From Rickettsiales bacterium (GTDB lineage: Bacteria > Pseudomonadota > Alphaproteobacteria > Rickettsiales > UBA1997), in the NCBI GenBank assembly GCA_018969185.1, contig JAGWYT010000001.1:78112-142111 (forward strand): DNA of 64,000 bases. The letters are read 5' to 3'. Under the pieces are notes generated by a model. It was not told the DNA's origin. It made no database searches and worked only from the letters and a program-made list of their open reading frames with translations. The position numbers were made by a program, and so were the translations under genes. Shown one piece after another: positions 2,061 through 63,987 of this stretch. The first letter of the stretch is position 1; every line of letters starts with the position of its first letter.

Positions 2061-3197
2061 TCAAGAAATTTCTCTCAAATTGTCTTCAATTTTTTTTACC
2101 AAATGCAGCGTATTTTCCAGCAATTCTTTATTTTCAGGAGAAGAGCTTGAAACCTGTTTTTGCAGATTTTCTTTTATTTCTGAAGTGCGATGTTTAGCTT
2201 CAATAATTACAGTTAATAATCTTTCAGCTTCTTTGTGTTTTTTTCTATAGATAAAGACAAATAATAATGTTGAGGTAAAAAATAATATTAATATTTCCAC
2301 AAATCTTGATATAAAGCTGCTCCATAGCCCATTAGCAATCATTTTATCATCATATCTTAGAACTAGATAATAGGGATAGTTTTTGATTCTTTTAACTAAA
2401 ATTCCATGGCGATTTTTAAATAATGAGATATCAATAATACTTATTTCTTCATCAGAATCTTGTAATTTTTGTAACATTGTTTTTATTAAATTGGCATCAA
2501 CAAAAATTCCTCGTGAGAAGCCAAATGAGGTGTTGTATCCGTAAAGCACAGTTACACCTTTAAAGTTTACTAATTCAAATCCCACATTGTTATTTTGTAA
2601 TGTTTTGCGGAGTGATCTTGCCAGTGCATTTATTTCAAATCCTATTGTTAATGCGCCAAGATATTTGCCGCTCGAATCAACTGCACCAACGCCTCCCGGT
2701 ATCATCCATTTTTTACTTGTTGAACCAAGAACAGGATTTCCTAAATGAAATTCGTCAGGTCTATCAACTGTGAGGTGAATATAATCGCGGTTTGAAAGGT
2801 CATAAGGTTCTGTCATTACGCCATATTTTGCATCAACAGTAATTTGATGATGAGAATTTGCCCAAGAAAAAAGAGTCCAAGAGAATGCTTCGCTTAAGTC
2901 AGGGCTGGTTTTAAACTTGGAAATAATCTGGTTAATATAGGTTTTATTATTTGGATCTTTAGCAATTTGCTCATTCATATTTTTTATAATGGCAAATGTG
3001 TGTTCTACGCTGTCAATCAAGCTTGCCTCAATTCTTATTGCTTCAATTCCAAGAGCATTTTTTATTTTATCTTCTTCAATTTTAACGAGATGAACAAAGA
3101 ACCAAGCTGTTAGAGCTAGAACAGAGATGGGAATAATTATGAAAATTGTGGGGACGTCGTTGAGTAACTTAGAAAATATTTCTAAATTTTTTTTCAT
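2061..3197 (-). CDS. membrane protein with a periplasmic Cache-like sensor domain; no kinase or output domain
   Basis: 378-aa ORF with an N-terminal TM segment, a ~270-aa extracytoplasmic region, a second TM (ILILFFTSTLLFVFIY), then only ~60 aa of coiled tail. The Cache-like assignment is by pattern only. Confidence 0.45.
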   Translation of the reverse strand: MKKNLEIFSKLLNDVPTIFIIIPISVLALTAWFFVHLVKIEEDKIKNALGIEAIRIEASLIDSVEHTFAIIKNMNEQIAKDPNNKTYINQIISKFKTSPDLSEAFSWTLFSWANSHHQITVDAKYGVMTEPYDLSNRDYIHLTVDRPDEFHLGNPVLGSTSKKWMIPGGVGAVDSSGKYLGALTIGFEINALARSLRKTLQNNNVGFELVNFKGVTVLYGYNTSFGFSRGIFVDANLIKTMLQKLQDSDEEISIIDISLFKNRHGILVKRIKNYPYYLVLRYDDKMIANGLWSSFISRFVEILILFFTSTLLFVFIYRKKHKEAERLLTVIIEAKHRTSEIKENLQKQVSSSSPENKELLENTLHLVKKIEDNLREIS

Positions 3198-3301
3198 AAG
3201 TGTGTTTTTTTAATCTAAAAAATTCCTTTAAAAAACTCGTTTTTGCAGAAAATAAAAATAACTAATCAGTTTTCAGCAGGAGGATCTTTCTAAAGAAACT
3301 C

Positions 3302-4489
3302 TTATCTATCAACTTCACCAAACACAATATCTTGTGTTGAAATTACTGTAACAACGTCAGCAAGCATGTGTCCCTTAACCATAAAATCTAATGCTTGAAG
3401 ATGGGCAAAACCTGGTGCACGAACACGGCAACGGTGAGGTTTATTGCCACCATTTGAAATGATATAAACGCCAAATTCACCTTTTGGAGCTTCAACGCAT
3501 CCGTAAGCTTCACCTTTCGGCACGTGATAACCTTCAGTAAATAATTTGAAATGATTAATCAAGCTTTCCATTGAGTGTTTCATCTCGCCTCTTTTTGGCG
3601 GAGCGATTTTAGAATCTAAAGTCATGATTGCACCTTTTGGCATTTTTTCTAAACATTGCTTGATGATCTTAATTGATTCACGCATTTCAGAAACGCGAAC
3701 TAAATAACGATCATAAGAATCACCATTCTTGCCAATTGGAATGTCAAAATCTAATTCAGAATAAACTTCATAAGGTTGGCTTTTGCGTAGGTCCCAAGCA
3801 ATTCCAGAACCACGAATCATTGGGCCAGAAAAACCCCAAGCTAAAGCTTCATCTTTTGAAACAACACCAATTTCAACCATTCTTTGTTTGAAGATACGAT
3901 TGTCAGTTAAAAGAGTTTCAAGGTCATCAACATATTTGATGAAATTATTAGCGAAATCAAAAATTTCTTCTTCTAATTTTGCTGGCAAATCTTGATGAAC
4001 ACCACCCGGACGAACATAAGCAGCGTGCATTCTTGAGCCAGAAACTTTTTCATAAAAGCCCATCATTTTTTCACGTTCTTCAAACATCCAAAGAAGTGGC
4101 GTCATGGCACCAACGTCAAGAGCTTGCGTGGTAACTGCCATGATGTGATTTAGGATTCGAGTAATTTCTGAAAATAAAACACGAATATATTTTGCTCTAA
4201 GTGGAACTTCGCATCCAAGAAGCTTTTCAACAGCTAAAGCGTAAGCGTGTTCTTGACACATTGGAGATACGTAATCAAGGCGATCAAAATAAGGAATTGC
4301 TTGAGTGTAAGTTTTATATTCAATTAATTTTTCAGTACCGCGATGAAGCAAGCCAATATGTGGATCAGCGCGGGTGATAACTTCACCATCCATTTCTAAA
4401 ACTAAACGCAGCACGCCGTGAGCGGCAGGGTGTTGCGGACCAAAATTTATGGTCATATTTTTAAGATCAACTTGATTAGCAGATGACAT
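3302..4489 (-). CDS. nuoD: NADH-quinone oxidoreductase subunit D
   Basis: 395-aa ORF with [15 protein letters not shown] near the N-terminus and ...DIVFGEVDR at the C-terminus, both classic NuoD. No other nuo genes are adjacent. Confidence 0.95.
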
Positions 4490-4593
4490 TGTTTTTTGAA
4501 AATTTGAATCTGATTTAAATGAGATTATGCATTTTTAGACCATTGGATCAAAAAAAACAAATTAAAAAAAGGATTTTTCAAATGAAAACAGAT

Positions 4594-4739
4594 GTTATGC
4601 CTGACAAACAATTTCTTAGTTGGCTTTGCCAACTTAGAAATTGTAGATTCGGCATCCATAGTTATTTTTTATGAACTGCGGATGAATAATTTCTAGGAAT
4701 CGCTTTGCAATTCTAAGAAATTATATCTCTGCAATGACG
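4594..4739. repeat. PE-B composite palindromic element, copy 1 (reverse orientation)
   Basis: Its reverse complement begins CGTCATTGCAGAG..TTTCTTAGA.., continues ..TCATCCGCA.. and ..TCTACAATTTCTAAG.., and ends ..TGTCAGGCATAAC. It is collinear with the copies at 23595-23739 and 45149-45286. Confidence 0.8.
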
Positions 4740-4784
4740 AAATCTGTTATTATTTGACAAGCTCTAGGTACTTTTTGATTATGA

Positions 4785-5726
4785 TTAAAGTTTCTGTATC
4801 AGAATATTTCTATTAATTGCTGTTTCATAACCAAGCAGCAATGGCATCATGTTTTTTGAATGTCCAAGGCAGTTTGATTTTTCTTTTAGAACTGGAATTT
4901 TTAAATTATTTTCCGCAATTTTGGCAATAAATCTTTTAATTGCCATATCAATATTTTTTGCCTTTGGAGTGCCGTGTGGATTACTTTCTAAAAAATTTCC
5001 AAGTAAAATTGCTTTTGGATATTTTTTTGTTTCAAGCAGGATTGTTATTATTTGGTTGAAGTAACGATCAAGCCTTTCGCCATCTTCTCCCTCATCTTCT
5101 AAAAAAAGAATTTTGTTTTCGAAGTCAATTTGATTTTTAGTGCCAAAATTTCCTGCTAAAACGCTGATACAGCCACCGACTATGCTGCATTTATTGTTAT
5201 TGAAAGAAATATTATTTAATTGTTTTAAATTATATTTTAGTTCTTTGGTTTTTCCAAAAAGTAAATTTATTATGGTGGAAACTGATTTTTCTGACACTTT
5301 ATTTAAAGCAATTTGAGCAAGGACGGGCGCGCATATAGCAGACCAATTCCACTTTTGTTCCATAAATGTTGTAAGCGAAACTATGTCAGAAAAACCAATA
5401 AAAATTTTTTGATTTTCTGGCTTTGGCATTTTTTGTAAAAAAGGCAAAATCTCTGCGCTACCATAGCCACCGCGGGCGCACCAAATTATTTTTGATTCAG
5501 AATTTTCAACTGCATATTTAAATTCTTTGAAGCGATTAATTGCCGCAAAGCTTGGAAATTCATGATTTATAGCTTTTTTTAAAATTAATTTTTCATCAAT
5601 AATTCTTGGAGTAAGACCAATTTTTTTGATAAAATTTTTTATTTTTGTGATTTCGTCTTTAGTGCAAGCGGTTGCGGGTGATATAATATCAACAACATCA
5701 CCTTTTTTTAAAGCTTTAAAATTCAT
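4785..5726 (-). CDS. ldcA: LD-carboxypeptidase (peptidase S66, muramoyltetrapeptide carboxypeptidase-like)
   Basis: 313-aa ORF with a GFSDIVSL nucleophile motif, an EDEGE acidic patch and a C-terminal GH, as in the S66 family. Confidence 0.7.
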   Translation of the reverse strand: MNFKALKKGDVVDIISPATACTKDEITKIKNFIKKIGLTPRIIDEKLILKKAINHEFPSFAAINRFKEFKYAVENSESKIIWCARGGYGSAEILPFLQKMPKPENQKIFIGFSDIVSLTTFMEQKWNWSAICAPVLAQIALNKVSEKSVSTIINLLFGKTKELKYNLKQLNNISFNNNKCSIVGGCISVLAGNFGTKNQIDFENKILFLEDEGEDGERLDRYFNQIITILLETKKYPKAILLGNFLESNPHGTPKAKNIDMAIKRFIAKIAENNLKIPVLKEKSNCLGHSKNMMPLLLGYETAINRNILIQKL

Positions 5727-5812: not shown

Positions 5813-7315
5813 ATGAAAGATAAAGTTATTATCTTTGACACAACTTTGCGTGATGGTGAGCAAGCTCCCGGAGCTACGATGAATTTGGAAGAAAAATTAC
5901 TGATTGCGAAGAACTTAGAAAAAATGGGCGTTGATGTAATTGAAGCTGGGTTTCCGGCTGCGTCAAATGGTGATTTTGAAGCGGTTAATAGAATTGCTAA
6001 AACTATTAAAAATTCAGTTGTATGTGGTTTAGCGCGCGCTAAAAAATCTGACATTGAAAGAACTGCGGAAGCTGTGAAGCCAGCAGCAAAGCCAAGAATT
6101 CACACTTTTCTTGCCACAAGCAAAATCCACATGCAATATAAGTTGAAAATGGACGAAGCACAAGTTTTAAATGCCATTACAGAAAGCGTTTCTTTAGCGC
6201 GTGGCTTATGTCCGGAAGTTGATTGGTCGCCAGAAGATGCAACACGTTCAGAACATGATTTCTTATTTAAAGCAATTGAAACTGCAATTAAGGCTGGAGC
6301 TAATACTATCAACATCCCGGACACTGTTGGTTATACAACTCCTGAAGAATATTTTGCCTTAATTTCAGCAATAAAAAATAATGTTTCTAACATTGATAAG
6401 GCAATAATTTCATCGCATTGTCATAATGATTTAGGCATGGCGGTGGCAAATTCTTTAGCAGCAATGAGAGCTGGTGCCAGACAAATTGAATGCACAATTA
6501 ATGGTATTGGTGAACGGGCAGGCAACGCTGCTTTAGAAGAAATTGTTATGGCAATTAAAACACGCGGTGATTTTTATGGTGTTGAAACAGGCGTTGACAC
6601 CACAATGATTACCAGAATTTCAAAATTAGTTTCAAGCATTACAGGTTTTCCAGTGCAATATAATAAGGCGATTGTTGGCGCTAACGCCTTTGCTCATGAA
6701 AGTGGAATTCATCAAGATGGAATTTTGAAAAATCGCGAGACTTATGAAATTATGACTCCAGAGTCAGTTGGTTTAGAAAAATCTTCTTTGGTTTTAGGAA
6801 AATTATCTGGGCGCGCTGCTTTCAAGGATCGCTTAAAAGAAATTGGTTATGATTTAAGTGAAGAGACTTTGGCGGAAGCTTTCAAGAAATTTAAGGATTT
6901 AGCGGACAAAAAGAAAGAAATTCTTGATGAAGACATTATCTCTTTAGTTGATGATTCGTTGATTAATCAAGGTTCGCGTTATCAGCTAATTGATTTGGAC
7001 GTTAAATGTGGTGCGGCTAAGGATGCAAAAATTTCAATTAAAATAAAAATTGACAATGAGGAGAAAAATGCTAATTTTTCTTCGAAGGATGGTCCGGTGG
7101 ATGCAATTTTTGGTGCCATCAAGTCTTTAATACCGCATAATGCTACGCTAGAACTATATCAGCTTCACGGCGTAACAGAAGGAACAGATGCTCAAGCAAC
7201 TGCAACTGTAAGATTAAGGCAAAATAACAGAACTTTTAGTGCTAATGGTTCAGATACTGATGTGCTTGTGGCATCAGCTTTGGCCTACATAAATTGTTTA
7301 GACAAAATTAAATAA
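5813..7315 (+). CDS. leuA: 2-isopropylmalate synthase
   Basis: 500-aa ORF with IFDTTLRDGEQAPGA, HCHNDLGMAVANSLAA and a C-terminal LeuA-dimer-like region. Confidence 0.8.
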   Translation: MKDKVIIFDTTLRDGEQAPGATMNLEEKLLIAKNLEKMGVDVIEAGFPAASNGDFEAVNRIAKTIKNSVVCGLARAKKSDIERTAEAVKPAAKPRIHTFLATSKIHMQYKLKMDEAQVLNAITESVSLARGLCPEVDWSPEDATRSEHDFLFKAIETAIKAGANTINIPDTVGYTTPEEYFALISAIKNNVSNIDKAIISSHCHNDLGMAVANSLAAMRAGARQIECTINGIGERAGNAALEEIVMAIKTRGDFYGVETGVDTTMITRISKLVSSITGFPVQYNKAIVGANAFAHESGIHQDGILKNRETYEIMTPESVGLEKSSLVLGKLSGRAAFKDRLKEIGYDLSEETLAEAFKKFKDLADKKKEILDEDIISLVDDSLINQGSRYQLIDLDVKCGAAKDAKISIKIKIDNEEKNANFSSKDGPVDAIFGAIKSLIPHNATLELYQLHGVTEGTDAQATATVRLRQNNRTFSANGSDTDVLVASALAYINCLDKIK

Positions 7316-54572: not shown

Positions 54573-56318
54573 ATGCCTAAATTTGATAAATCAAAATTAC
54601 CTTCACGTTATGTAACGAATTCTCATGGTTGCGAAGGGCGTAAAACCATGCTTTACAACATTAAAACTGATTTATATCCGCAAGGTTTGAATGATGCAGA
54701 TTTAGCTTCACCATTTGTTGGTGTGGTAAGTGCGTGGAATGAAGCCGCTCCTTGTAATATTGCTTTGCAGCGTCAGGCGCAACCTGCAAAAAAAGGCGTG
54801 AAAGATTTTGGTGGAACGCCTCGTGAATTTACAACAATCACAGTTACTGACGGCATTGCTAATGGTCATCAAGGTATGAAATCGTCTTTGGTTTCTCGTG
54901 AAGTGATTGCTGATTCAATTGAAGTTACAGTGCGTGGACATTGCTATGATGCTTTGGTTGGAATTGCTGGTTGTGACAAATCATTACCTGGTATGATGAT
55001 GGCGATGTGCCGTTTAAATGTGCCTTCGGTTTTCATGTATGGTGGTTCAATTCTACCAGGAAAATTCAAAGGTAAAGATGTGACAATTGTTGATGTGTTT
55101 GAAGCAGTGGGTCAGAGAGATGCTGGAAAAATGACTGAAGAAGATTTGCAAATTTTAACTAAAGCGGCTTGCCCTTCGGCTGGCGCCTGTGGTGGACAAT
55201 TTACGGCGAACACTATGGCTTGTGTAAGTGAGGCAATTGGTCTTGCACTTCCTGGATCGTCTGGTGCTCCAGCGCCTTATGAATCAAGAGATGAATATGC
55301 TTATGCTTCAGGAAAAGCAGTGATGAATTTAATCGAAAAAAACATTAAAGCGCGTGATATTGTTACAAGAAAATCTTTAGAAAATGCAGCGGCAATTGTT
55401 GCAGCAACTGGTGGCTCAACTAATGCGGTTCTTCATTTACCAGCAATAGCTAGTGAATGTGGAATTGATTTTGACGCTTTTGATATTGGTGAAATTTTTA
55501 AGCGCACGCCTTATATTGCTGACATGAAACCGGGTGGAAAATATGTGGCGAAAGATTTATATGAAGCGGGTGGTGTGCAAATGATTTTAAAAGTTCTTTT
55601 AGATGCTGGCTATATTCACGGTGATTGCTTGACTGTTACTGGAAAAACAATGGCAGAAAATCTTGCCGATGTGAAATTTAATGAAAAGCAAGATGTAGTT
55701 TACAAACCTGAGAAGCCTTTATCTAAAAGTGGTGGTGTGGTTGTGTTGAAGGGTAACTTGGCTATTGAAGGAGCGGTGGTTAAAATTGCTGGAATGCAAA
55801 ATGAGAATCTAAAGTTTGTTGGAAGCGCTCTTTGTTTTGATTCTGAAGAAGCTTGTTTCAAAGCTGTTGAAAGAAAGCAATATAAAGAGGGTGATGTGTT
55901 TGTAATTCGCTATGAAGGACCAAAAGGGGGGCCAGGAATGCGTGAAATGCTTGCAACAACTGCGGCAATTTATGGACAAGGTATGGGTAATAAAGTTGCG
56001 CTAATTACTGATGGTAGATTTTCTGGTGGAACAAGAGGTTTTTGTGTTGGTCACGTTGCACCGGAAGCAGCAGCTGGAGGCATGATAGCACTTTTAAAAA
56101 ATGGTGATAAAATTACAATTGATGCAATTAATGGCGCAATTGATGTTGATTTAAGTGAGGCTGAAATTGCTAAACGTAAGTCTGAGTGGCAAGCGCGTGA
56201 GAATGATTATAGATCAGGAACATTGTGGAAATATGCTAAAACAGTTGGTTCAGCAAGGTTTGGTGCGGTGACTCATCCGGGAGCTAAGGCGGAAAAAATT
56301 TCTTATGATAAAATATAA
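54573..56318 (+). CDS. ilvD: dihydroxy-acid dehydratase
   Basis: 581-aa ORF with [28 protein letters not shown] and [13 protein letters not shown]. Confidence 0.9.
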
Positions 56319-58569
56319 GAGTTCAATTTTAGGTCTAAGTTGGCAACAAAAAGATTATGACGAACGCTTGGCAATGGCGATTGCTCAAAGATTTGAACTG
56401 TCTCAAGTTTTAGCAAAATTAATTGCTGAACGTGAAATTTCATTAGATGAAATTGAGAATTTTTTAAATCCTAAAATAAAAACTAATCTTCCTGATCCAT
56501 TTACTCTTCTTGATATGAAAGAAGCGTTAGAGCATGTGATTGACGCCATTAAGAAAAATAAAAAAATTACAATTTTTGCGGATTATGATGTTGATGGTGC
56601 AACTTCATCAGCTTTGTTAAAAAGATTTTTTCGTGAAATTGGTGTTGATGTTTCAATTTACGTGCCAGATCGTATCTTGGAAGGTTATGGACCAAATGTT
56701 AATGCCTTGCTTAATTTAAAAAAATCAGGCACTGATTTAGTAATTACAGTTGATTGCGGAACTGTGTCTTTTGAGCCGTTAGAAGAAGCAGCAAAAGCGA
56801 ATTTAGATATTATTGTAATTGATCATCATATTGGAGTTACTGAAAAACCAAAGGCTTTGGCAGTGATAAATCCTAATCGTATTGATGAAAATTTTCCTCA
56901 TAAAAATATTTGTGCGGCAGGAGTGAGCTTTCTTTTTGCTGTTGCAATTAACAAAGCTTTGCGTGATGAAGGATTCTACTCCAGCGCAATTACTCCCCCC
57001 TTGAGGGGGAGTCGGCATGCCGAAGGCATGCCGGTGGGGGATCAAAATCTTTCAAAAGCAACTAGATTTTACTCCAAAGAAACCCTAGAAAAAGCAAAAG
57101 AGCTAAAAGTTAACCAAACAGATGCTGAGAATCTACTCTGGTATTATTTGCGAGATAAACAGTTAGATGGACATAAATTTAGAAGACAGCAAGCAATTGA
57201 TAATTACATTGTAGATTTTGTTTGTTTAGAAAAGAAGTTGGTTGTTGAGCTTGATGGTGGTCAGCATAGTGAAGATAAGGCTATAAAATATGATCAGAAT
57301 AGAACAGAGTTTTTGAATAAGAGTGGATTCAATGTTTTAAGATTTTGGAATGATGAGGTATTTAAGAATATGGAAGGTGTTTTGGATTCGGTGTTTTTTA
57401 ATTTAAATTATAACCCCTCCCCGAAGCTGCCTTTGGCAGCTTCGACCCTCCCTCAAGGGGAGGGTAAAAGACGTGAACCAAATTTATTAAATCTTTTAGA
57501 TCTTGTTGCACTTGGAACGGTTTGTGATGTGATGCCGCTAATAGGCTTAAATCGTGCTTTAGTGGCGCAGGGTTTAAAGATTATTAAGAATAGAAGTAAT
57601 TTAGGAATTCGCACAATTTGTGATTTAGCAGGTTTAAATGAAGAGCCAACTGCTTATCATTTAGGTTTTGTTATTGGACCACGAATTAACGCTGGCGGAA
57701 GAGTTGGTAAATCAGATTTGGGTGCAAGAATTTTATCAAGTGAAGATGAGGAAGAGGTGCAAAAAATTTCCTTGCAGTTAGAAGAATTTAACAAGCAGCG
57801 CAAGGATATTGAAATTCAAATTCAAGAAGAAGCACAAAATAATTTAGAAAAATCAATTGGTGGTTTTAGCATAAATGATTCAGTGATTTTTGCTGTTTCA
57901 AACTCTTGGCATCAAGGTGTGATTGGCATTGTGGCATCACGAATCAAAGATCTTTACAATAAACCAGTTGCAGTAATTACAGTTAAAGATGGAAAAGGGA
58001 AAGCATCATGCCGTTCAATTAATGGTGTTGATTTTGGTTCGGCAATTTTACAAGCAAGATTGGAAGGCTTGTTAATTGATGGCGGAGGGCATGCCATGGC
58101 GGGAGGATTCTCAGTTTTAGAAGAAAAAATTCCTGAGTTACATAAATTCTTTAATAAAATTTTGGGCGAAAAAATTATAGAATTTTCTTCAAAAAGAGAT
58201 ATGTTTTTTGCTGCAGAACTTGACTTAGCTCAAATAAATATTGAATTGATAAAAGACTTGGAAAAGCTTGAACCATTTGGTATGGGCAATTCTAAACCAA
58301 AATTTATTATTCGTGATTTACAAAAAGTAAGAGCAAATTTAATTGGTAAAAATCAAGATCATATTAGCTGTATTTTTTCATCTAAAACGGCAATTGGTTT
58401 TAGTGGAAATTTACAAGCAGTTGCTTTTAGAGGTGCGAATAGTCCTTTAGCAGAAATTCTTTTAGATCCAAAATTTACTAAACCAATTAATGTGGCTGGA
58501 CAGTTGAATATTAATTCTTGGATGGGAGTTGAAAAGGTACAATTATTAATTGAGGATATTTTGATTTAG
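56305..58569 (+). CDS. recJ: single-stranded-DNA-specific exonuclease RecJ carrying an in-frame ~165-aa DUF559/palindrome insertion
   Basis: 754 aa against ~577 aa in E. coli. DHH motifs are present ([16 protein letters not shown]). The sequence is collinear with E. coli RecJ on both sides of the block at 56991-57465 (...ALRDEGFY | insert | [23 protein letters not shown]...). The DHHA1 motif GGHAMAGG is present. Confidence 0.9.
56991..57465 (+). mobile_element. DUF559 (Vsr-like endonuclease fold) cassette flanked by inverted PE-D palindromic units
   Basis: Left unit 56991-57043: CTCCCCCCTTGAGGGGGAG + CGGCATGCC-GAA-GGCATGCCG + GTGGGGG. Right unit 57412-57465: AACCCCTCCCC-GAAGCTGCC-TTTG-GCAGCTTC-GACCCTCCCTCAAGGGGAGGGT. 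The two have the same layout in opposite orientation. Core: [60 protein letters not shown]...[12 protein letters not shown]. Confidence 0.7.
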
Positions 58570-61658: not shown

Positions 61659-62642
61659 CTAATTTTTTAATAAGAAATTTCTTTTTATATCATGAACCCT
61701 AATAAAATCTACATTCTTCTTTATAAGATATTTAGAAATAACAAGAGTTTTATTTGCTCTATCTGGAGGCTGTTCCCAAACTACGCAAGGTAATAACGAG
61801 CTTTTTGCCTCATCTCGTGGCTCTTTTGATGCATCTGACTTCGGAAAATTTTCTTCAGATAATTGCATATCTGAAGAAAATTGTTTCTTGTCATCTGCAC
61901 AAAATAGCCTACGATCTGAGGTAAAAAGTTTGGGAACAGGCTCCAACTCTCCCATTTCAGAAAAATCAATGGCATCAAGAAAACTTTTTTTAGAATGTCC
62001 AACATAAAGTGGCAATCCTAAAACTCTAAAGGCATCGATGTTTTTTAAAATACGAATTGATTGCAAAGAATCTTTGCCAAAACCAATTCCAACATCAAAA
62101 ATCAATTGTGATTTTTTAACGCCTTTTTGCATCAGATAAGAAATTTTTTCTTGTGCCCATTTAATAATTTCGTCAGTCAAATTTAAATGTCTATTAATTA
62201 ACGTTCCTTCAACTGCTGGCACAGATAGATTATGCATCAAAATGGTTGTGATATTATTTTTGGCAATAAATTCAATGGTGCGATCATCAATTAAACCATC
62301 AACATCATTAATAATATCAACACCATTTTCAAAAGCTTTTTTGGCAGTTTCAAAGTGACGAGTGTCAATGCTGGTGGTAACTTTCTTACCAGTTTTTTGA
62401 TTAAAATTTTTTACTTCTGAAGTTATTGCTGGCAGAATTTTTTCTAATCTTTTCCATTCTTCTTCTGTGCTTACGGGTGTAAATCCAGGGCGGGTTGATT
62501 CAGCACCAATATCAATCATATCAGCGCCGTCATTTAACATTTCTTTTAGATGAGTAATGGCATTATCAAGCGAAGTGAATTTCCCACCATCGGAAAATGA
62601 ATCAGGAGTAATGTTTAAAATACCAACAATTTTTGTGGGCAT
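61659..62642 (-). CDS. folP: dihydropteroate synthase with an in-frame ~60-aa palindromic insertion
   Basis: 327 aa against 282 aa in E. coli. It has GILNITPDSFSDGG, IDIGAESTRPG, DVGIGFGK, VGHSKKSF and IRVHDI. About 70 aa lie between SKKSFLD and DRANKTLV, where E. coli has about 8. Confidence 0.85.
   Translation of the reverse strand: MPTKIVGILNITPDSFSDGGKFTSLDNAITHLKEMLNDGADMIDIGAESTRPGFTPVSTEEEWKRLEKILPAITSEVKNFNQKTGKKVTTSIDTRHFETAKKAFENGVDIINDVDGLIDDRTIEFIAKNNITTILMHNLSVPAVEGTLINRHLNLTDEIIKWAQEKISYLMQKGVKKSQLIFDVGIGFGKDSLQSIRILKNIDAFRVLGLPLYVGHSKKSFLDAIDFSEMGELEPVPKLFTSDRRLFCADDKKQFSSDMQLSEENFPKSDASKEPRDEAKSSLLPCVVWEQPPDRANKTLVISKYLIKKNVDFIRVHDIKRNFLLKN
61771..61938. repeat. 168-bp palindromic element inside folP (family unassigned)
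   Basis: Terminal inverted repeat TGTTCCCAAACT (61771-61782) / AGTTTGGGAACA (61927-61938). Central palindrome GAAAATTTTCTTCAGAT-AATTGCAT-ATCTGAAGAAAATT. 168 nt equals 56 codons. Confidence 0.7.
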
Positions 62643-62667: not shown

Positions 62668-62800
62668 AACCCTCCCCTTGAGGGAGGGTCGACGAACAAG
62701 CTTTGCTTGTGAGTCGGGGAGGGGTTATAGTTTTTCAAAAACCTAATTTTACCCCTCCTCGAAGCTGCTAAAGCAGCTTCGATCCTCCCTCAAGGGGAGG
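62668..62800. repeat. inverted pair of PE-D units separated by only ~24 bp (cargo-less version of the recJ cassette)
   Basis: 62668-62726: AACCCTCCCCTTGAGGGAGGGTCGACGAACAAGCTTTGCTTGTGAGTCGGGGAGGGGTT (reverse orientation). 62751-62800: ACCCCTCCTCGAAGCTGCTAAAGCAGCTTCGATCCTCCCTCAAGGGGAGG (forward). The forward unit has the same inner hairpin stem (GAAGCTGC/GCAGCTTC) as the right unit in recJ. Confidence 0.8.
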
Positions 62801-62829
62801 ATAATTGGACCGAAATAAATAAAGAAATT

Positions 62830-63987
62830 CTACCACTTCTTTTCAAACTTTTTTCTTAAAATAACTGCAATCAAATTAAACAAAATCAGCATTGCTAAAA
62901 GCACCAAAATTGCGGCGGCAGTTTTTTCAGCAAATCCTGCTTCTGGGCTGTCAGACCATAGATAAATTTGTACAGGAAGAACGGTAGTAGGATCAGAAAA
63001 ATTTTGAGGAATATCAGCGATGAATGCAACCATACCAATCATCAAAAGTGGTGCGGTTTCGCCTAAAGCGCGTGAAATTGCTAAAATTGTTCCTGTCATA
63101 ATTCCCGGTATTGAAAGCGGTAATAAGTGATGCAAAACAATTTGCATTTTTGAAGCGCCAAGAGCCATCGCGCCATCTTTAATTGTTTTTGGAATTGAAC
63201 GAATTGTGTTGCGCGTTGCAATAATAATTACTGGTAAAACAAGCATGAATAAAGTCATGCCGCCAACCAAAGCTGAAGAGCGCGGCAGATAGAAAAATTG
63301 TAAATAAACTGTTAAACCAAGAAGGCCGTAAATGATTGAAGGAATTGCCGCCAAGTTATTAATACTGATTTCAATGATGTCAGTGATTTTATTTTTAGGA
63401 GCAAATTCTTCTAAATAAAAAGCGCACATTATGCCAATTGGAAAAGCGAGGCTTAAGAAAATTAACATCACTAAAATTGAACCTTTTAAACCAGCGCCAA
63501 TACCAGCAATTTCAGGTTCTCTTGAATCAGCGAATTTAAAGAAATTCCAATTTATTATAGTTTTTATTTTTTGATTTGAGATTAATTTTTCAGCTAAAAT
63601 TATTTGTTTTTCGCTTAGAGATGATTTTTCTTTATGTTTGAAATAAATGTCGAATTTTGAAGAGGTGCTAAGCCAAAAATTATTTTTACTACCAATTAAT
63701 TCTTGGCGTTTTTCGATTTGATTTCTCAATTCTAAAGCTGCGATTTTACTGGTTATTTGATATAAATTATTAACATCAGCAAGTTCAACTATTTCAGGAA
63801 ATTCTTCACGCAAAGATTGTTTTATAAGACGACGATAATTTATTTTTTCAATTAATTCAGCCTTTGATAATGTTGAAATATCTTTTAATTCAAGATCAGA
63901 ATTTTTGGCAATTGATTCTGCACTTAGGTCAATGTTAAGTGAAACTTCATGACGTAAAAAAGAGCTATATCCTTTAGTTATCAGCAT
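62830..63987 (-). CDS. pstA: phosphate ABC transporter permease PstA
   Basis: 385-aa ORF with a long N-terminal extension and the C-terminal permease core (NLAAIPSIIYGLLGL, ISRALGETAPLLMIG). The last 20 nt of the window read as the overlapping 3' end of an upstream ORF, probably pstC; that is too short to call. Confidence 0.85.
   Translation of the reverse strand: MLITKGYSSFLRHEVSLNIDLSAESIAKNSDLELKDISTLSKAELIEKINYRRLIKQSLREEFPEIVELADVNNLYQITSKIAALELRNQIEKRQELIGSKNNFWLSTSSKFDIYFKHKEKSSLSEKQIILAEKLISNQKIKTIINWNFFKFADSREPEIAGIGAGLKGSILVMLIFLSLAFPIGIMCAFYLEEFAPKNKITDIIEISINNLAAIPSIIYGLLGLTVYLQFFYLPRSSALVGGMTLFMLVLPVIIIATRNTIRSIPKTIKDGAMALGASKMQIVLHHLLPLSIPGIMTGTILAISRALGETAPLLMIGMVAFIADIPQNFSDPTTVLPVQIYLWSDSPEAGFAEKTAAAILVLLAMLILFNLIAVILRKKFEKKW

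Follow-up and report, generated by a model that had tools for sequence, protein, structure and literature searches.

The recJ gene of a Rickettsiales bacterium (GTDB lineage UBA1997) contains an in-frame block that encodes a DUF559 nuclease domain between two GC-rich palindromes. The gene lies in a stretch of 64,000 nucleotides, referred to here as the window, from contig JAGWYT010000001.1 of assembly GCA_018969185.1 (positions 78,112 to 142,111 of the forward strand), and coordinates below are those of the window. The block, at about 56990–57467, is probably a copy of a widespread selfish cassette in which a DUF559 gene is carried between inverted hairpin modules, in an arrangement resembling that of the REPtrons, and which is tolerated in frame by the gene that harbours it. 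From comparisons of sequence we infer that the cassette is mobile and that its nuclease takes part in the movement. The gene, its product and the parts of the cassette are located as follows.

56305–58569, + strand: recJ open reading frame, 754 aa, which reads through the whole cassette
56990–57042, + strand: left terminal module, beta subtype (DNA fold −20.5 kcal/mol, z −6.2)
56992–57012: first hairpin (hp1) of the left module, ACTCCCCCCTTGAGGGGGAGT, composed of ACTCCCCC/CTTGA/GGGGGAGT
57013–57033: second hairpin (hp2) of the left module, CGGCATGCCGAAGGCATGCCG, composed of CGGCATGCC/GAA/GGCATGCCG
57034–57042: G-run of the left module
57064–57414, + strand: DUF559 (Vsr-family PD-(D/E)xK) nuclease domain, residues 254–370, as delineated from Pfam, structure 3HRL, the ratio of nonsynonymous to synonymous divergence (dN/dS) and AlphaFold2
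57414–57467, + strand: right terminal module, alpha subtype, inverted (DNA fold −21.2 kcal/mol, z −6.7)
57414–57421: C-run of the right module
57422–57444: hp2 of the right module, CGAAGCTGCCTTTGGCAGCTTCG
57445–57465: hp1 of the right module, ACCCTCCCTCAAGGGGAGGGT
RecJ residues 87–213: DHH domain (Pfam)
RecJ residues 260–367: DUF559 domain (Pfam, E 2.3e-40, profile positions 3–108 of 109)
RecJ residues 524–621: DHHA1 domain (Pfam)
RecJ residues 637–751: RecJ_OB domain (Pfam)

The modules that bound the cassette share one layout, consisting of a conserved hp1, a hypervariable hp2 and a run of G or C that is complementary to an hp1 arm. The outer 25-nt arms of the cassette (56990–57014 and 57443–57467) are 84% complementary. 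For every module the DNA fold is a pair of neighbouring hairpins, at −17 to −21 kcal/mol (z −5.6 to −6.7), with none of 200 shuffles as good, and the hp1 pattern has four matches in the window where 100 shuffles give an expectation of 0.00; for these reasons both the recurrence of hp1 and the folding of the hairpins are beyond chance. The GC content of the window is 33.5%, and the sequence of the left hp1 is also present in the GC-rich genome of L005. A preliminary description, made from the sequence of the window, took the flanks to be a single composite palindrome, present twice in opposite orientation and variable in its inner hairpin. Their inversion and the variability of hp2 are borne out, but the two copies belong to different subtypes. 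The alpha subtype combines ACCCTCCCC with GGGGAGGGGT and has an hp2 of the form CGAA..TTCG; the beta subtype combines ACTCCCCCC with GTGGGGGG and has an hp2 of the form CGG..CCG. The hp1 and run subtypes are concordant in 147 of 149 units, and the recJ cassette of the window is a beta-left, alpha-right heterodimer. Those 149 units contain 129 distinct hp2 sequences, nearly all of them still hairpins, and all four pair types are used at hp2 stem positions 5–9. Among 156 units the hp2 centre is GCGAAGC in 24 and GCGCAGC in 16. Both are unusually stable DNA mini-hairpins, which hints that the hairpins act as single-stranded DNA and not as RNA.

Comparison of the insert with Pfam returned DUF559, as the preliminary description had anticipated, with a near full-length match to PF04480 (137 bits against a cut-off of 20.6), and the peptides quoted in that description are all present in the 754-aa translation. 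Only one of the six reading frames of the cassette is open, that of recJ, and the inverted orientation contains eight stop codons in every frame. The AlphaFold2 model of RecJ, based on an alignment of 92 sequences, has a mean pLDDT (predicted local distance difference test) of 89. Values below 50 are confined to residues 229–253 and 371–386, which are exactly the translated palindromes, and residues 258–368 are modelled confidently as an alpha/beta domain. Foldseek matches the RecJ body to the solved RecJ structures 8y30, 5f56 and 2zxo, in agreement with the collinearity noted earlier for the sequence outside the insert, and matches the insert to the DUF559 structure 3HRL, with a template modelling (TM) score of 0.88 by target, a root mean square deviation of 1.6 Å and 46% identity. 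A sequence search of the PDB with the insert gave 3HRL as its sole match (E 2.6e-27) and no match to 3R3P at E <= 0.01. The D(F), E-x-D-G, Q-H and R-F-W-N motifs are invariant across all nine aligned RecJ-borne DUF559 copies; in 70 copies embedded in other proteins the D, E and D residues are invariant and the H nearly so. Judged by its sequence, the insert belongs to the DUF559/Vsr clade of PD-(D/E)xK nucleases, and nuclease activity is predicted for it.

The model thus places the nuclease in a surface loop of the RecJ DHH domain, as a separately folded domain to which the palindromes would contribute disordered linkers, much as the preliminary description had envisaged. No Hint or intein domain was found in RecJ with Pfam, and a scan of the whole window against Rfam at gathering thresholds gave one tRNA only, with no intron or other family in the cassette region, so that no intron or known RNA accounts for the hairpins. 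Given the model and these two negative results, the most likely product is a RecJ with an extra nuclease domain held on two disordered tethers. The in-frame ATG at 57028, proposed earlier as the start of a DUF559–RecJ C-terminal product, is unsupported as an alternative start; it is conserved in no orthologous cassette, lies inside hp2, which differs in every orthologue, and has an AAGG merely 1 nt upstream.

DUF559 genes elsewhere also adjoin such units. Among 68 distinct DUF559 loci recovered by protein similarity, 49 (72%) have flanking inverted repeats with a score of at least 14, against none of 40 displaced controls. A census of hairpins across the family shows G/C hairpins with the loop CTTGN 5′ of the DUF559 gene and NCAAG 3′ of it; because this holds throughout, the gene always faces the same way with respect to the loops, which are asymmetric. 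Inserts that are in frame and have Pfam domains of the host protein on at least one side are confirmed in FolC (L009), Ham1/RdgB (L022), an AP_endonuc_2 TIM barrel (L032), a 1442-aa UvrD-type protein (L069), HsdM (L005), RimI (L010) and Pth (L050), and IleRS is among the proteins in which hairpin, DUF559 and hairpin follow one another in frame. A HMMER search of 1.84 billion cluster representatives gave 25,109 DUF559 relatives at E <= 0.001. The 149 nearest representatives, at the 50% cluster level, include 70 proteins of 300 aa or more and 43 in which DUF559 has over 100 aa to either side. The other domains in these nearest representatives belong to 60 Pfam families, with HsdS accounting for 28, and include class I tRNA synthetases, GHMP kinases, EPSP synthase, RecO, NUDIX, YkuD and Eco57I. 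Peptides derived from the palindromes (e.g. HSPLEGES..) stand beside DUF559 on the left in 43/149 and on the right in 60/149 of the proteins, and in none of 103 control windows. In HsdS (P0248, P0249, P0255, P0261 and ∼24 more) the cassette recurs at one site, directly after ..WFVDFDPVRAK.., and this site is a second insertion hot spot, like that in recJ.

At the recJ locus itself, a protein search identified 12 RecJ proteins with DUF559 (742–784 aa) and more than 100 close relatives without the block (591–596 aa), and at least two further recJ cassettes came from a metagenome scan. A DUF559 match, empty sites in close relatives and DUF559 genes adjoining the units elsewhere, the three points on which the preliminary description had staked its case, were thus all found. 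The insertion point, between GFY and (K/R)EPNLL, is common to all RecJ inserts; the residues at the junctions are not conserved, and 13 of 13 RecJ-borne copies face forward. When the RecJ body is used to build a neighbour-joining tree, the carriers are scattered, each nested among empty relatives, with the filled P0122 and P0123 lying inside the near-identical empty cluster P0135–P0144; presence or absence of the cassette differs between RecJ alleles that are 98% identical in protein. Remnants are also found at the site. L208 (P0170) has the order hp1-hp2-hp1′ and no nuclease, which fits recombination between the left and right hp2, since a palindrome is its own direct repeat too, and L209 (P0213) has the right module alone. 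The number of modules varies among recJ alleles, with three left units in P0124 and one extra in P0123/L088.

Comparison of two filled alleles (L007 and L088) and an empty one (L087) at the DNA level allows the history of the locus to be followed. The RecJ bodies of L007 and L088 are 98% identical, and the subtypes of their terminal modules differ. Synonymous divergence (dS) between the two is 0.74 in the nuclease core and 0.25–0.28 in the recJ body. For recJ-borne cassettes dN/dS is about 0.076 (0.07–0.08) in the nuclease core, and for the recJ body between insert-bearing alleles it is 0.04–0.055; from these low ratios, purifying selection on both is clear, and both proteins are kept functional. 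The claim that the DUF559 domain is intact in RecJ therefore stands. Between filled and empty alleles, divergence is maximal in the 50 codons around the site, with proportions of synonymous (pS) and nonsynonymous (pN) differences of 0.56–0.64 and 0.10–0.13, against pS 0.08–0.46 and pN <= 0.044 in most other windows of the recJ body. Such a peak would arise if homologous recombination exchanges the cassette and its immediate flanks together, and it is also expected of an old balanced presence/absence polymorphism. Since the dS of the insert exceeds that of the body, the module subtypes differ and divergence peaks at the site, the history of the recJ cassette does not look purely vertical. The terminal modules of L007 are perfect 49-nt inverted repeats; those of L008 have the same sequence, and the L008 nuclease is only 69–72% identical to that of the window.

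The hairpin units form a dispersed repeat family. The exact 23-mer hp1 ACYCYCCCCTTGAGGGRGRGTCG, scanned in one genome per species, was present in at least 119 stretches of 8 kb each. Among the matches listed, its hosts are Alphaproteobacteria (Rhizomicrobium, Micropepsaceae and metagenome-assembled genomes (MAGs) of Rickettsiales), Gammaproteobacteria, Nitrospinota, Nitrospirales, Gemmatimonadota, Acidobacteria, Latescibacterota, Deferribacteraceae and others; these matches also include ∼33 convergent doublets of 117–167 nt and three cases in which DUF559 lies between both units. The exact 23-nt hp1 is found as well in 21 viral or prophage contigs of IMG/VR (L211–L231), mostly as doublets and in some contigs twice, and viruses are a possible vehicle for the spread of the units between phyla. 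Single or paired units without cargo also occur in frame in genes, for example in the RecJ of L208 and in a polyprenyl synthetase (L118, a Muribaculaceae MAG of the Bacteroidota with 37% GC), the latter holding one unit at ∼5091. The three nucleotides outside hp1 are mostly ATC on one side and GAT on the other. At L191, L175, L187, L174 and L141 the host flanks of doublets are long, locus-specific inverted repeats, matching at up to 20/20 nt (L191), a pattern that suggests either that doublets entered palindromes already present, at their centre, or that the target was duplicated in inverted form.

One such doublet lies in the window, 5 kb from the recJ cassette.

61659–62642, − strand: folP-like gene, on one side of the doublet
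62669–62802: cargo-less doublet of cassette modules, like a REPIN (a doublet of repetitive extragenic palindromic (REP) sequences) or a MITE (miniature inverted-repeat transposable element), between the folP-like and pstA-like genes
62669–62726: left unit of the doublet
62727–62751: spacer of the doublet, 25 nt
62752–62802: right unit of the doublet
62830–63987, − strand: pstA-like gene, on the other side of the doublet

The right units of the doublet and of the recJ cassette are ∼90% identical, their shared hp2 included, and the spacer resembles the cassette interior over its first ∼30 nt, with a similarity equalled in 38 of 2000 shuffles. On these grounds the sequence suggests that the doublet is an internal-deletion derivative of the cassette. 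As in MITEs, cargo-less copies share both termini with the cassette and can be derived from it by internal deletion, here in the window doublet and in L208. Cassettes decay by recombination between their palindromic modules, leaving doublets, single units or clean empty sites. With a cargo-less doublet close by, and cargo-less units also in frame in genes, the analogies drawn at the outset with REPtrons and with Rickettsia palindromic elements (RPEs) are apt.

If the cassette is mobile, the nuclease would serve the cassette rather than RecJ. It may recognise or cut the conserved hp1 ends or unoccupied sites, whereupon host recombination and repair would copy the cassette into the empty allele, with recJ homology as guide. 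An alternative route of copying could lead into cargo-less doublets, the ∼50-bp modules acting as portable homology arms. The copies that survive selection would be those that are in frame and co-oriented in tolerant loops of genes, and such copies might also borrow the expression of the host gene. A precedent is I-Bth0305I, a homing endonuclease that is grouped in the PD-(D/E)xK clade of Vsr and DUF559 (PMC3424549; PMC2677866); the clade to which the insert is assigned already holds a proven homing endonuclease. The population pattern is also like that of homing endonuclease genes, in that the cassette is present or absent at one precise site among close relatives and the flanks co-diverge, although the recJ cassette has neither intron nor intein. 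It is a possibility that Vsr-like nicking of T:G mismatches in extruded hairpins keeps the stems G/C-only against AT-biased mutation.

A DUF559 protein associated with a hairpin unit is also found in Escherichia coli K-12, where it is encoded by ycjD (L210, NC_000913.3 1351040–1351830). The last codons of ycjD run into a C-arm/G-arm hairpin unit, and the region 3′ of the gene contains an incomplete second copy of its 3′ end as well as the unit CCCCTCGCCCC-TCT-GGGGAGAGGG-TTA-GGGTGAGGGG, whose arms match the right module of the L069 DUF559 insert almost exactly. A 63-mer of this downstream unit occurs in 5426/5426 E. coli genomes, where the median number of places is 16. The unit is probably BoxC, which was first seen beside envM (fabI), the neighbour of ycjD. 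In contrast to the recJ modules, the E. coli units lack hp2, and ycjD has a unit on one side only. BoxC has been described as a 56-bp family of 22–32 copies with no known function (PMC2267715). Upstream of ycjD, the sapF–ycjD intergenic region contains an unrelated long AT-rich hairpin, CACCTCATTCTGACAA..TTGTCAGAATGAGGTG.

A wider proposal, which we make tentatively, is that DUF559 proteins are the dedicated enzymes of a pan-bacterial class of GC-rich hairpin repeats, to which both the BoxC-like units of enterobacteria and the doublets described here, from Alphaproteobacteria to Nitrospirota, would belong. They might then constitute a second REPtron-type system, with a PD-(D/E)xK enzyme in place of an HUH enzyme, that colonises coding sequences in frame by way of host transcription and translation and displays its nuclease on dozens of housekeeping and restriction-modification proteins.

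Several observations weigh against the reading of the recJ block as a mobile selfish cassette. PD-(D/E)xK nucleases perform no strand transfer, and the cassette could therefore move only with the help of host repair. In 45 pairs the target site was never found directly duplicated, the flanks often being inverted repeats instead. DUF559 is present in just 10 of the 119 eight-kb hp1 stretches listed, and in L093 (2714–3205) a beta-type module pair surrounds ∼400 nt of tandemly repeated non-coding DNA without DUF559, so that modules can bracket other cargo. At recJ, the identity of the insert core co-varies with that of the RecJ body (r = 0.81), from which it follows that the cassette has long resided in the clade and has mostly travelled with recJ; it is no recent arrival there, and the locus is an old presence/absence polymorphism. 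Vertical descent with repeated loss could explain most of the recJ pattern without recent movement. The higher dS of the insert rests on ∼80 synonymous sites, and hairpin-associated mutagenesis, or conversion from paralogous cassettes, could also have raised it. The co-variation is what would be seen if an alphaproteobacterial ancestor had fused a Vsr-like nicking nuclease into RecJ, to give a nick plus 5′-exonuclease enzyme that is used by the cell, the palindromes being relics of linkers and the relatives without the block being losses. Strong purifying selection on both parts, a DUF559 domain that is well folded on flexible tethers, and the many hosts that are DNA-repair or restriction-modification enzymes (RecJ, UvrD-like, RecO, HsdM, HsdS and Ham1) point the same way. 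We nevertheless regard a domesticated fusion as improbable, given that a cassette with the same hairpin ends occurs in ∼60 unrelated protein families as well as in intergenic DNA. A linker needs no G/C-only hairpins in a genome of 33% GC, and the terminal modules remain perfect inverted repeats despite a diverging coding part. Most of the clade, moreover, lives without the block, and the site is polymorphic, filled or empty, between alleles 98% identical in protein, with remnants and extra modules besides.

The likeliest of the alternatives, and still an unlikely one, differs from the selfish cassette only in who moves the bare doublets. It holds these to be an independent REPIN or MITE family that is moved by another enzyme, with DUF559 as a secondary invader. 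Cargo-less doublets are indeed far commoner than cargo-bearing ones among the matches listed, doublets and single units stand in frame without DUF559, one hp1 pair (L093) carries other DNA, and homing endonucleases are known in this nuclease clade. Against it stands the orientation of DUF559 relative to the loop asymmetry, which is fixed across the family, as does the resemblance of the window doublet's spacer to the cassette interior, which points to a deletion and not to a target never yet entered. The L208 remnant is likewise a deletion product, and beside the units no further candidate for the enzyme came to light. A further idea is that the cassette is a switch, inverted by recombination at its terminal inverted repeats, so that recJ is silenced and repair, or a mutator state, becomes phase-variable. 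In the study of Milman et al. DUF559 proteins are listed, without comment, among the families enriched for predicted programmed inversions, with odds ratios of 14.3 for 'DUF559 domain-containing protein' and 9.6 for 'Endonuclease domain-containing protein' (PMC9881135), and the stop codons of the inverted cassette would indeed close every frame. Such a switch is very unlikely, however, as all of the RecJ-borne copies face forward and no invertase is nearby, and the enrichment may merely reflect flanking inverted repeats or the many DUF559 inserts in hsdS. The latter is a classic shufflon gene. Least credible of all is a self-removing element, either an intein or an intron with an open frame by chance, that would leave the mature RecJ without the block. 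Like inteins, the insert stands in frame in a conserved repair gene, but it consists only of a nuclease and two low-complexity linkers, its junction residues vary, and neither a Hint domain (Pfam) nor an intron or other Rfam family is present in the region.

Among known systems, the REPtrons are the closest in layout. They too have a nuclease gene (RAYT, the REP-associated tyrosine transposase, or TnpA-REP, an HUH tyrosine transposase) between inverted GC-rich hairpin repeats, and like the DUF559 cassette they have dispersed, cargo-less convergent doublets of ∼120–170 nt (REPINs), heterodimers of subtypes and no target-site duplication. Their enzyme is of the HUH type, whereas that of the cassette is a PD-(D/E)xK nuclease (Vsr/DUF559), for which no covalent strand transfer is therefore expected. 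The repeats of REPtrons carry a GTAG tag that the cassette units lack; the DUF559 cassettes, for their part, are frequent in coding sequences, in frame and co-oriented, and the core of their hairpin is identical across phyla. The DUF559 cassette is REPtron-like in layout but not a member of the REPtrons.

The RPEs and the Coxiella QMITE elements are also palindromes that stand in frame in unrelated housekeeping genes, are translated through and occupy surface regions, and the RPEs share with the window an AT-rich alphaproteobacterial setting. As compared by description, they differ in having no protein cargo, whereas the cassette has a folded nuclease between its palindromes, and the cassette units lack a CGTC/TGTC tag. 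No enzyme is known for the RPE and QMITE elements (PMC10969869), and the REPs of the CGTC type, RPE-4 and RPE-6 included, are without a dedicated transposase (Di Nocera et al.; PMC3733652). The same orphan-repeat problem applies to the DUF559-cassette units. Membership of the CGTC-tagged REPs, which also comprise the Neisseria dRS3, was considered in view of their alphaproteobacterial range, the link with RPEs and the missing transposase, and was rejected on the tag. Repeats of that class have a stem of 8–9 bp, a loop of 4–5 nt, a terminal CGTC, TGTC or CCTC tag and a CCA tail; the stem of hp1 is 8 bp long and its loop 5 nt, but its neighbours are the CGA/CGG stem of hp2 and ATC/GAT, and there is no CGTC tag. 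Units of the form TGTC-ATCCCCGC-GCAA-GCGGGGAT-CCA, distinct from the hp1 units, do occur in L208 (11873–11905, 17060–17089 and 17125–17155, with one inverted pair), and these fit the published description of CGTC/TGTC-tagged REPs.

The Vsr-like homing endonucleases (I-Bth0305I and those of the 'fractured genes' loci) share their PD-(D/E)xK clade with Vsr and DUF559 (PMC3424549) and also insert into DNA replication and repair genes, and hairpins have been noted beside their reading frames (PMC2677866). They reside in group I introns or between the halves of split inteins, or break the host gene in two, whereas the recJ cassette lacks any means of splicing, and the reading frame of recJ continues across the nuclease. 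Of published oddities, the one that comes nearest is the ShiLan-type insertion in phage methylase genes (PMC11855218), which resembles the recJ cassette in being an endonuclease insert that leaves the host frame open, is neither intein nor intron, and is present or absent among close relatives; its nuclease, however, is of the HNH type and lies out of frame, and it has neither terminal hairpin modules nor dispersed cargo-less copies. A search of the open literature found no paper linking DUF559 to repeats or to a mobile cassette, in keeping with the earlier remark that no description of a palindrome-bounded, in-frame cassette with DUF559 was known. Nuclease-encoding selfish elements and the REPtron-like layout are both known, and what appears to be new is the link of DUF559 with orphan repeat families.

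To our knowledge no role has been assigned to DUF559, a very large family, and we know of no enzyme for the BoxC-type repeats, which have lacked one for decades, nor of an explanation for the orphan classes related to them, REP and RPE. If DUF559 and the repeats are indeed linked, physically and in evolution, this would explain both an orphan protein family and orphan repeats, and ycjD with BoxC would then offer an easy experimental handle in E. coli. Selfish elements that encode a nuclease can reside in essential genes as inteins or as introns; the cassette would add a third option, that of staying in frame on disordered linkers which its own terminal repeats encode. For annotation, many DUF559 'fusions' (HsdS, IleRS, RecJ, RecO and others) would be insertions and not functional fusions. 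The 23-nt hairpin and the compact nuclease of ∼110 aa could also serve as a sequence- or structure-specific DNA tool.

Two further observations concern the stand-alone DUF559 cassette P0001 and the region around it. In L005, a direct repeat of ∼35 bp (∼5945–5979 and 6611–6645) flanks this cassette and is the 3′ end, with the stop codon, of an upstream gene of 47 aa; from its sequence, the cassette appears to have entered the 3′ end of that gene, the end being duplicated or restored. Just upstream of the P0001 cassette, in the near-identical contigs L003–L006, the called IleRS (ileS, ∼2400–5285) has a length of 907, 956 or 943 aa, or is split into 261 + 667, and palindromic units may be entering and leaving ileS in these contigs.

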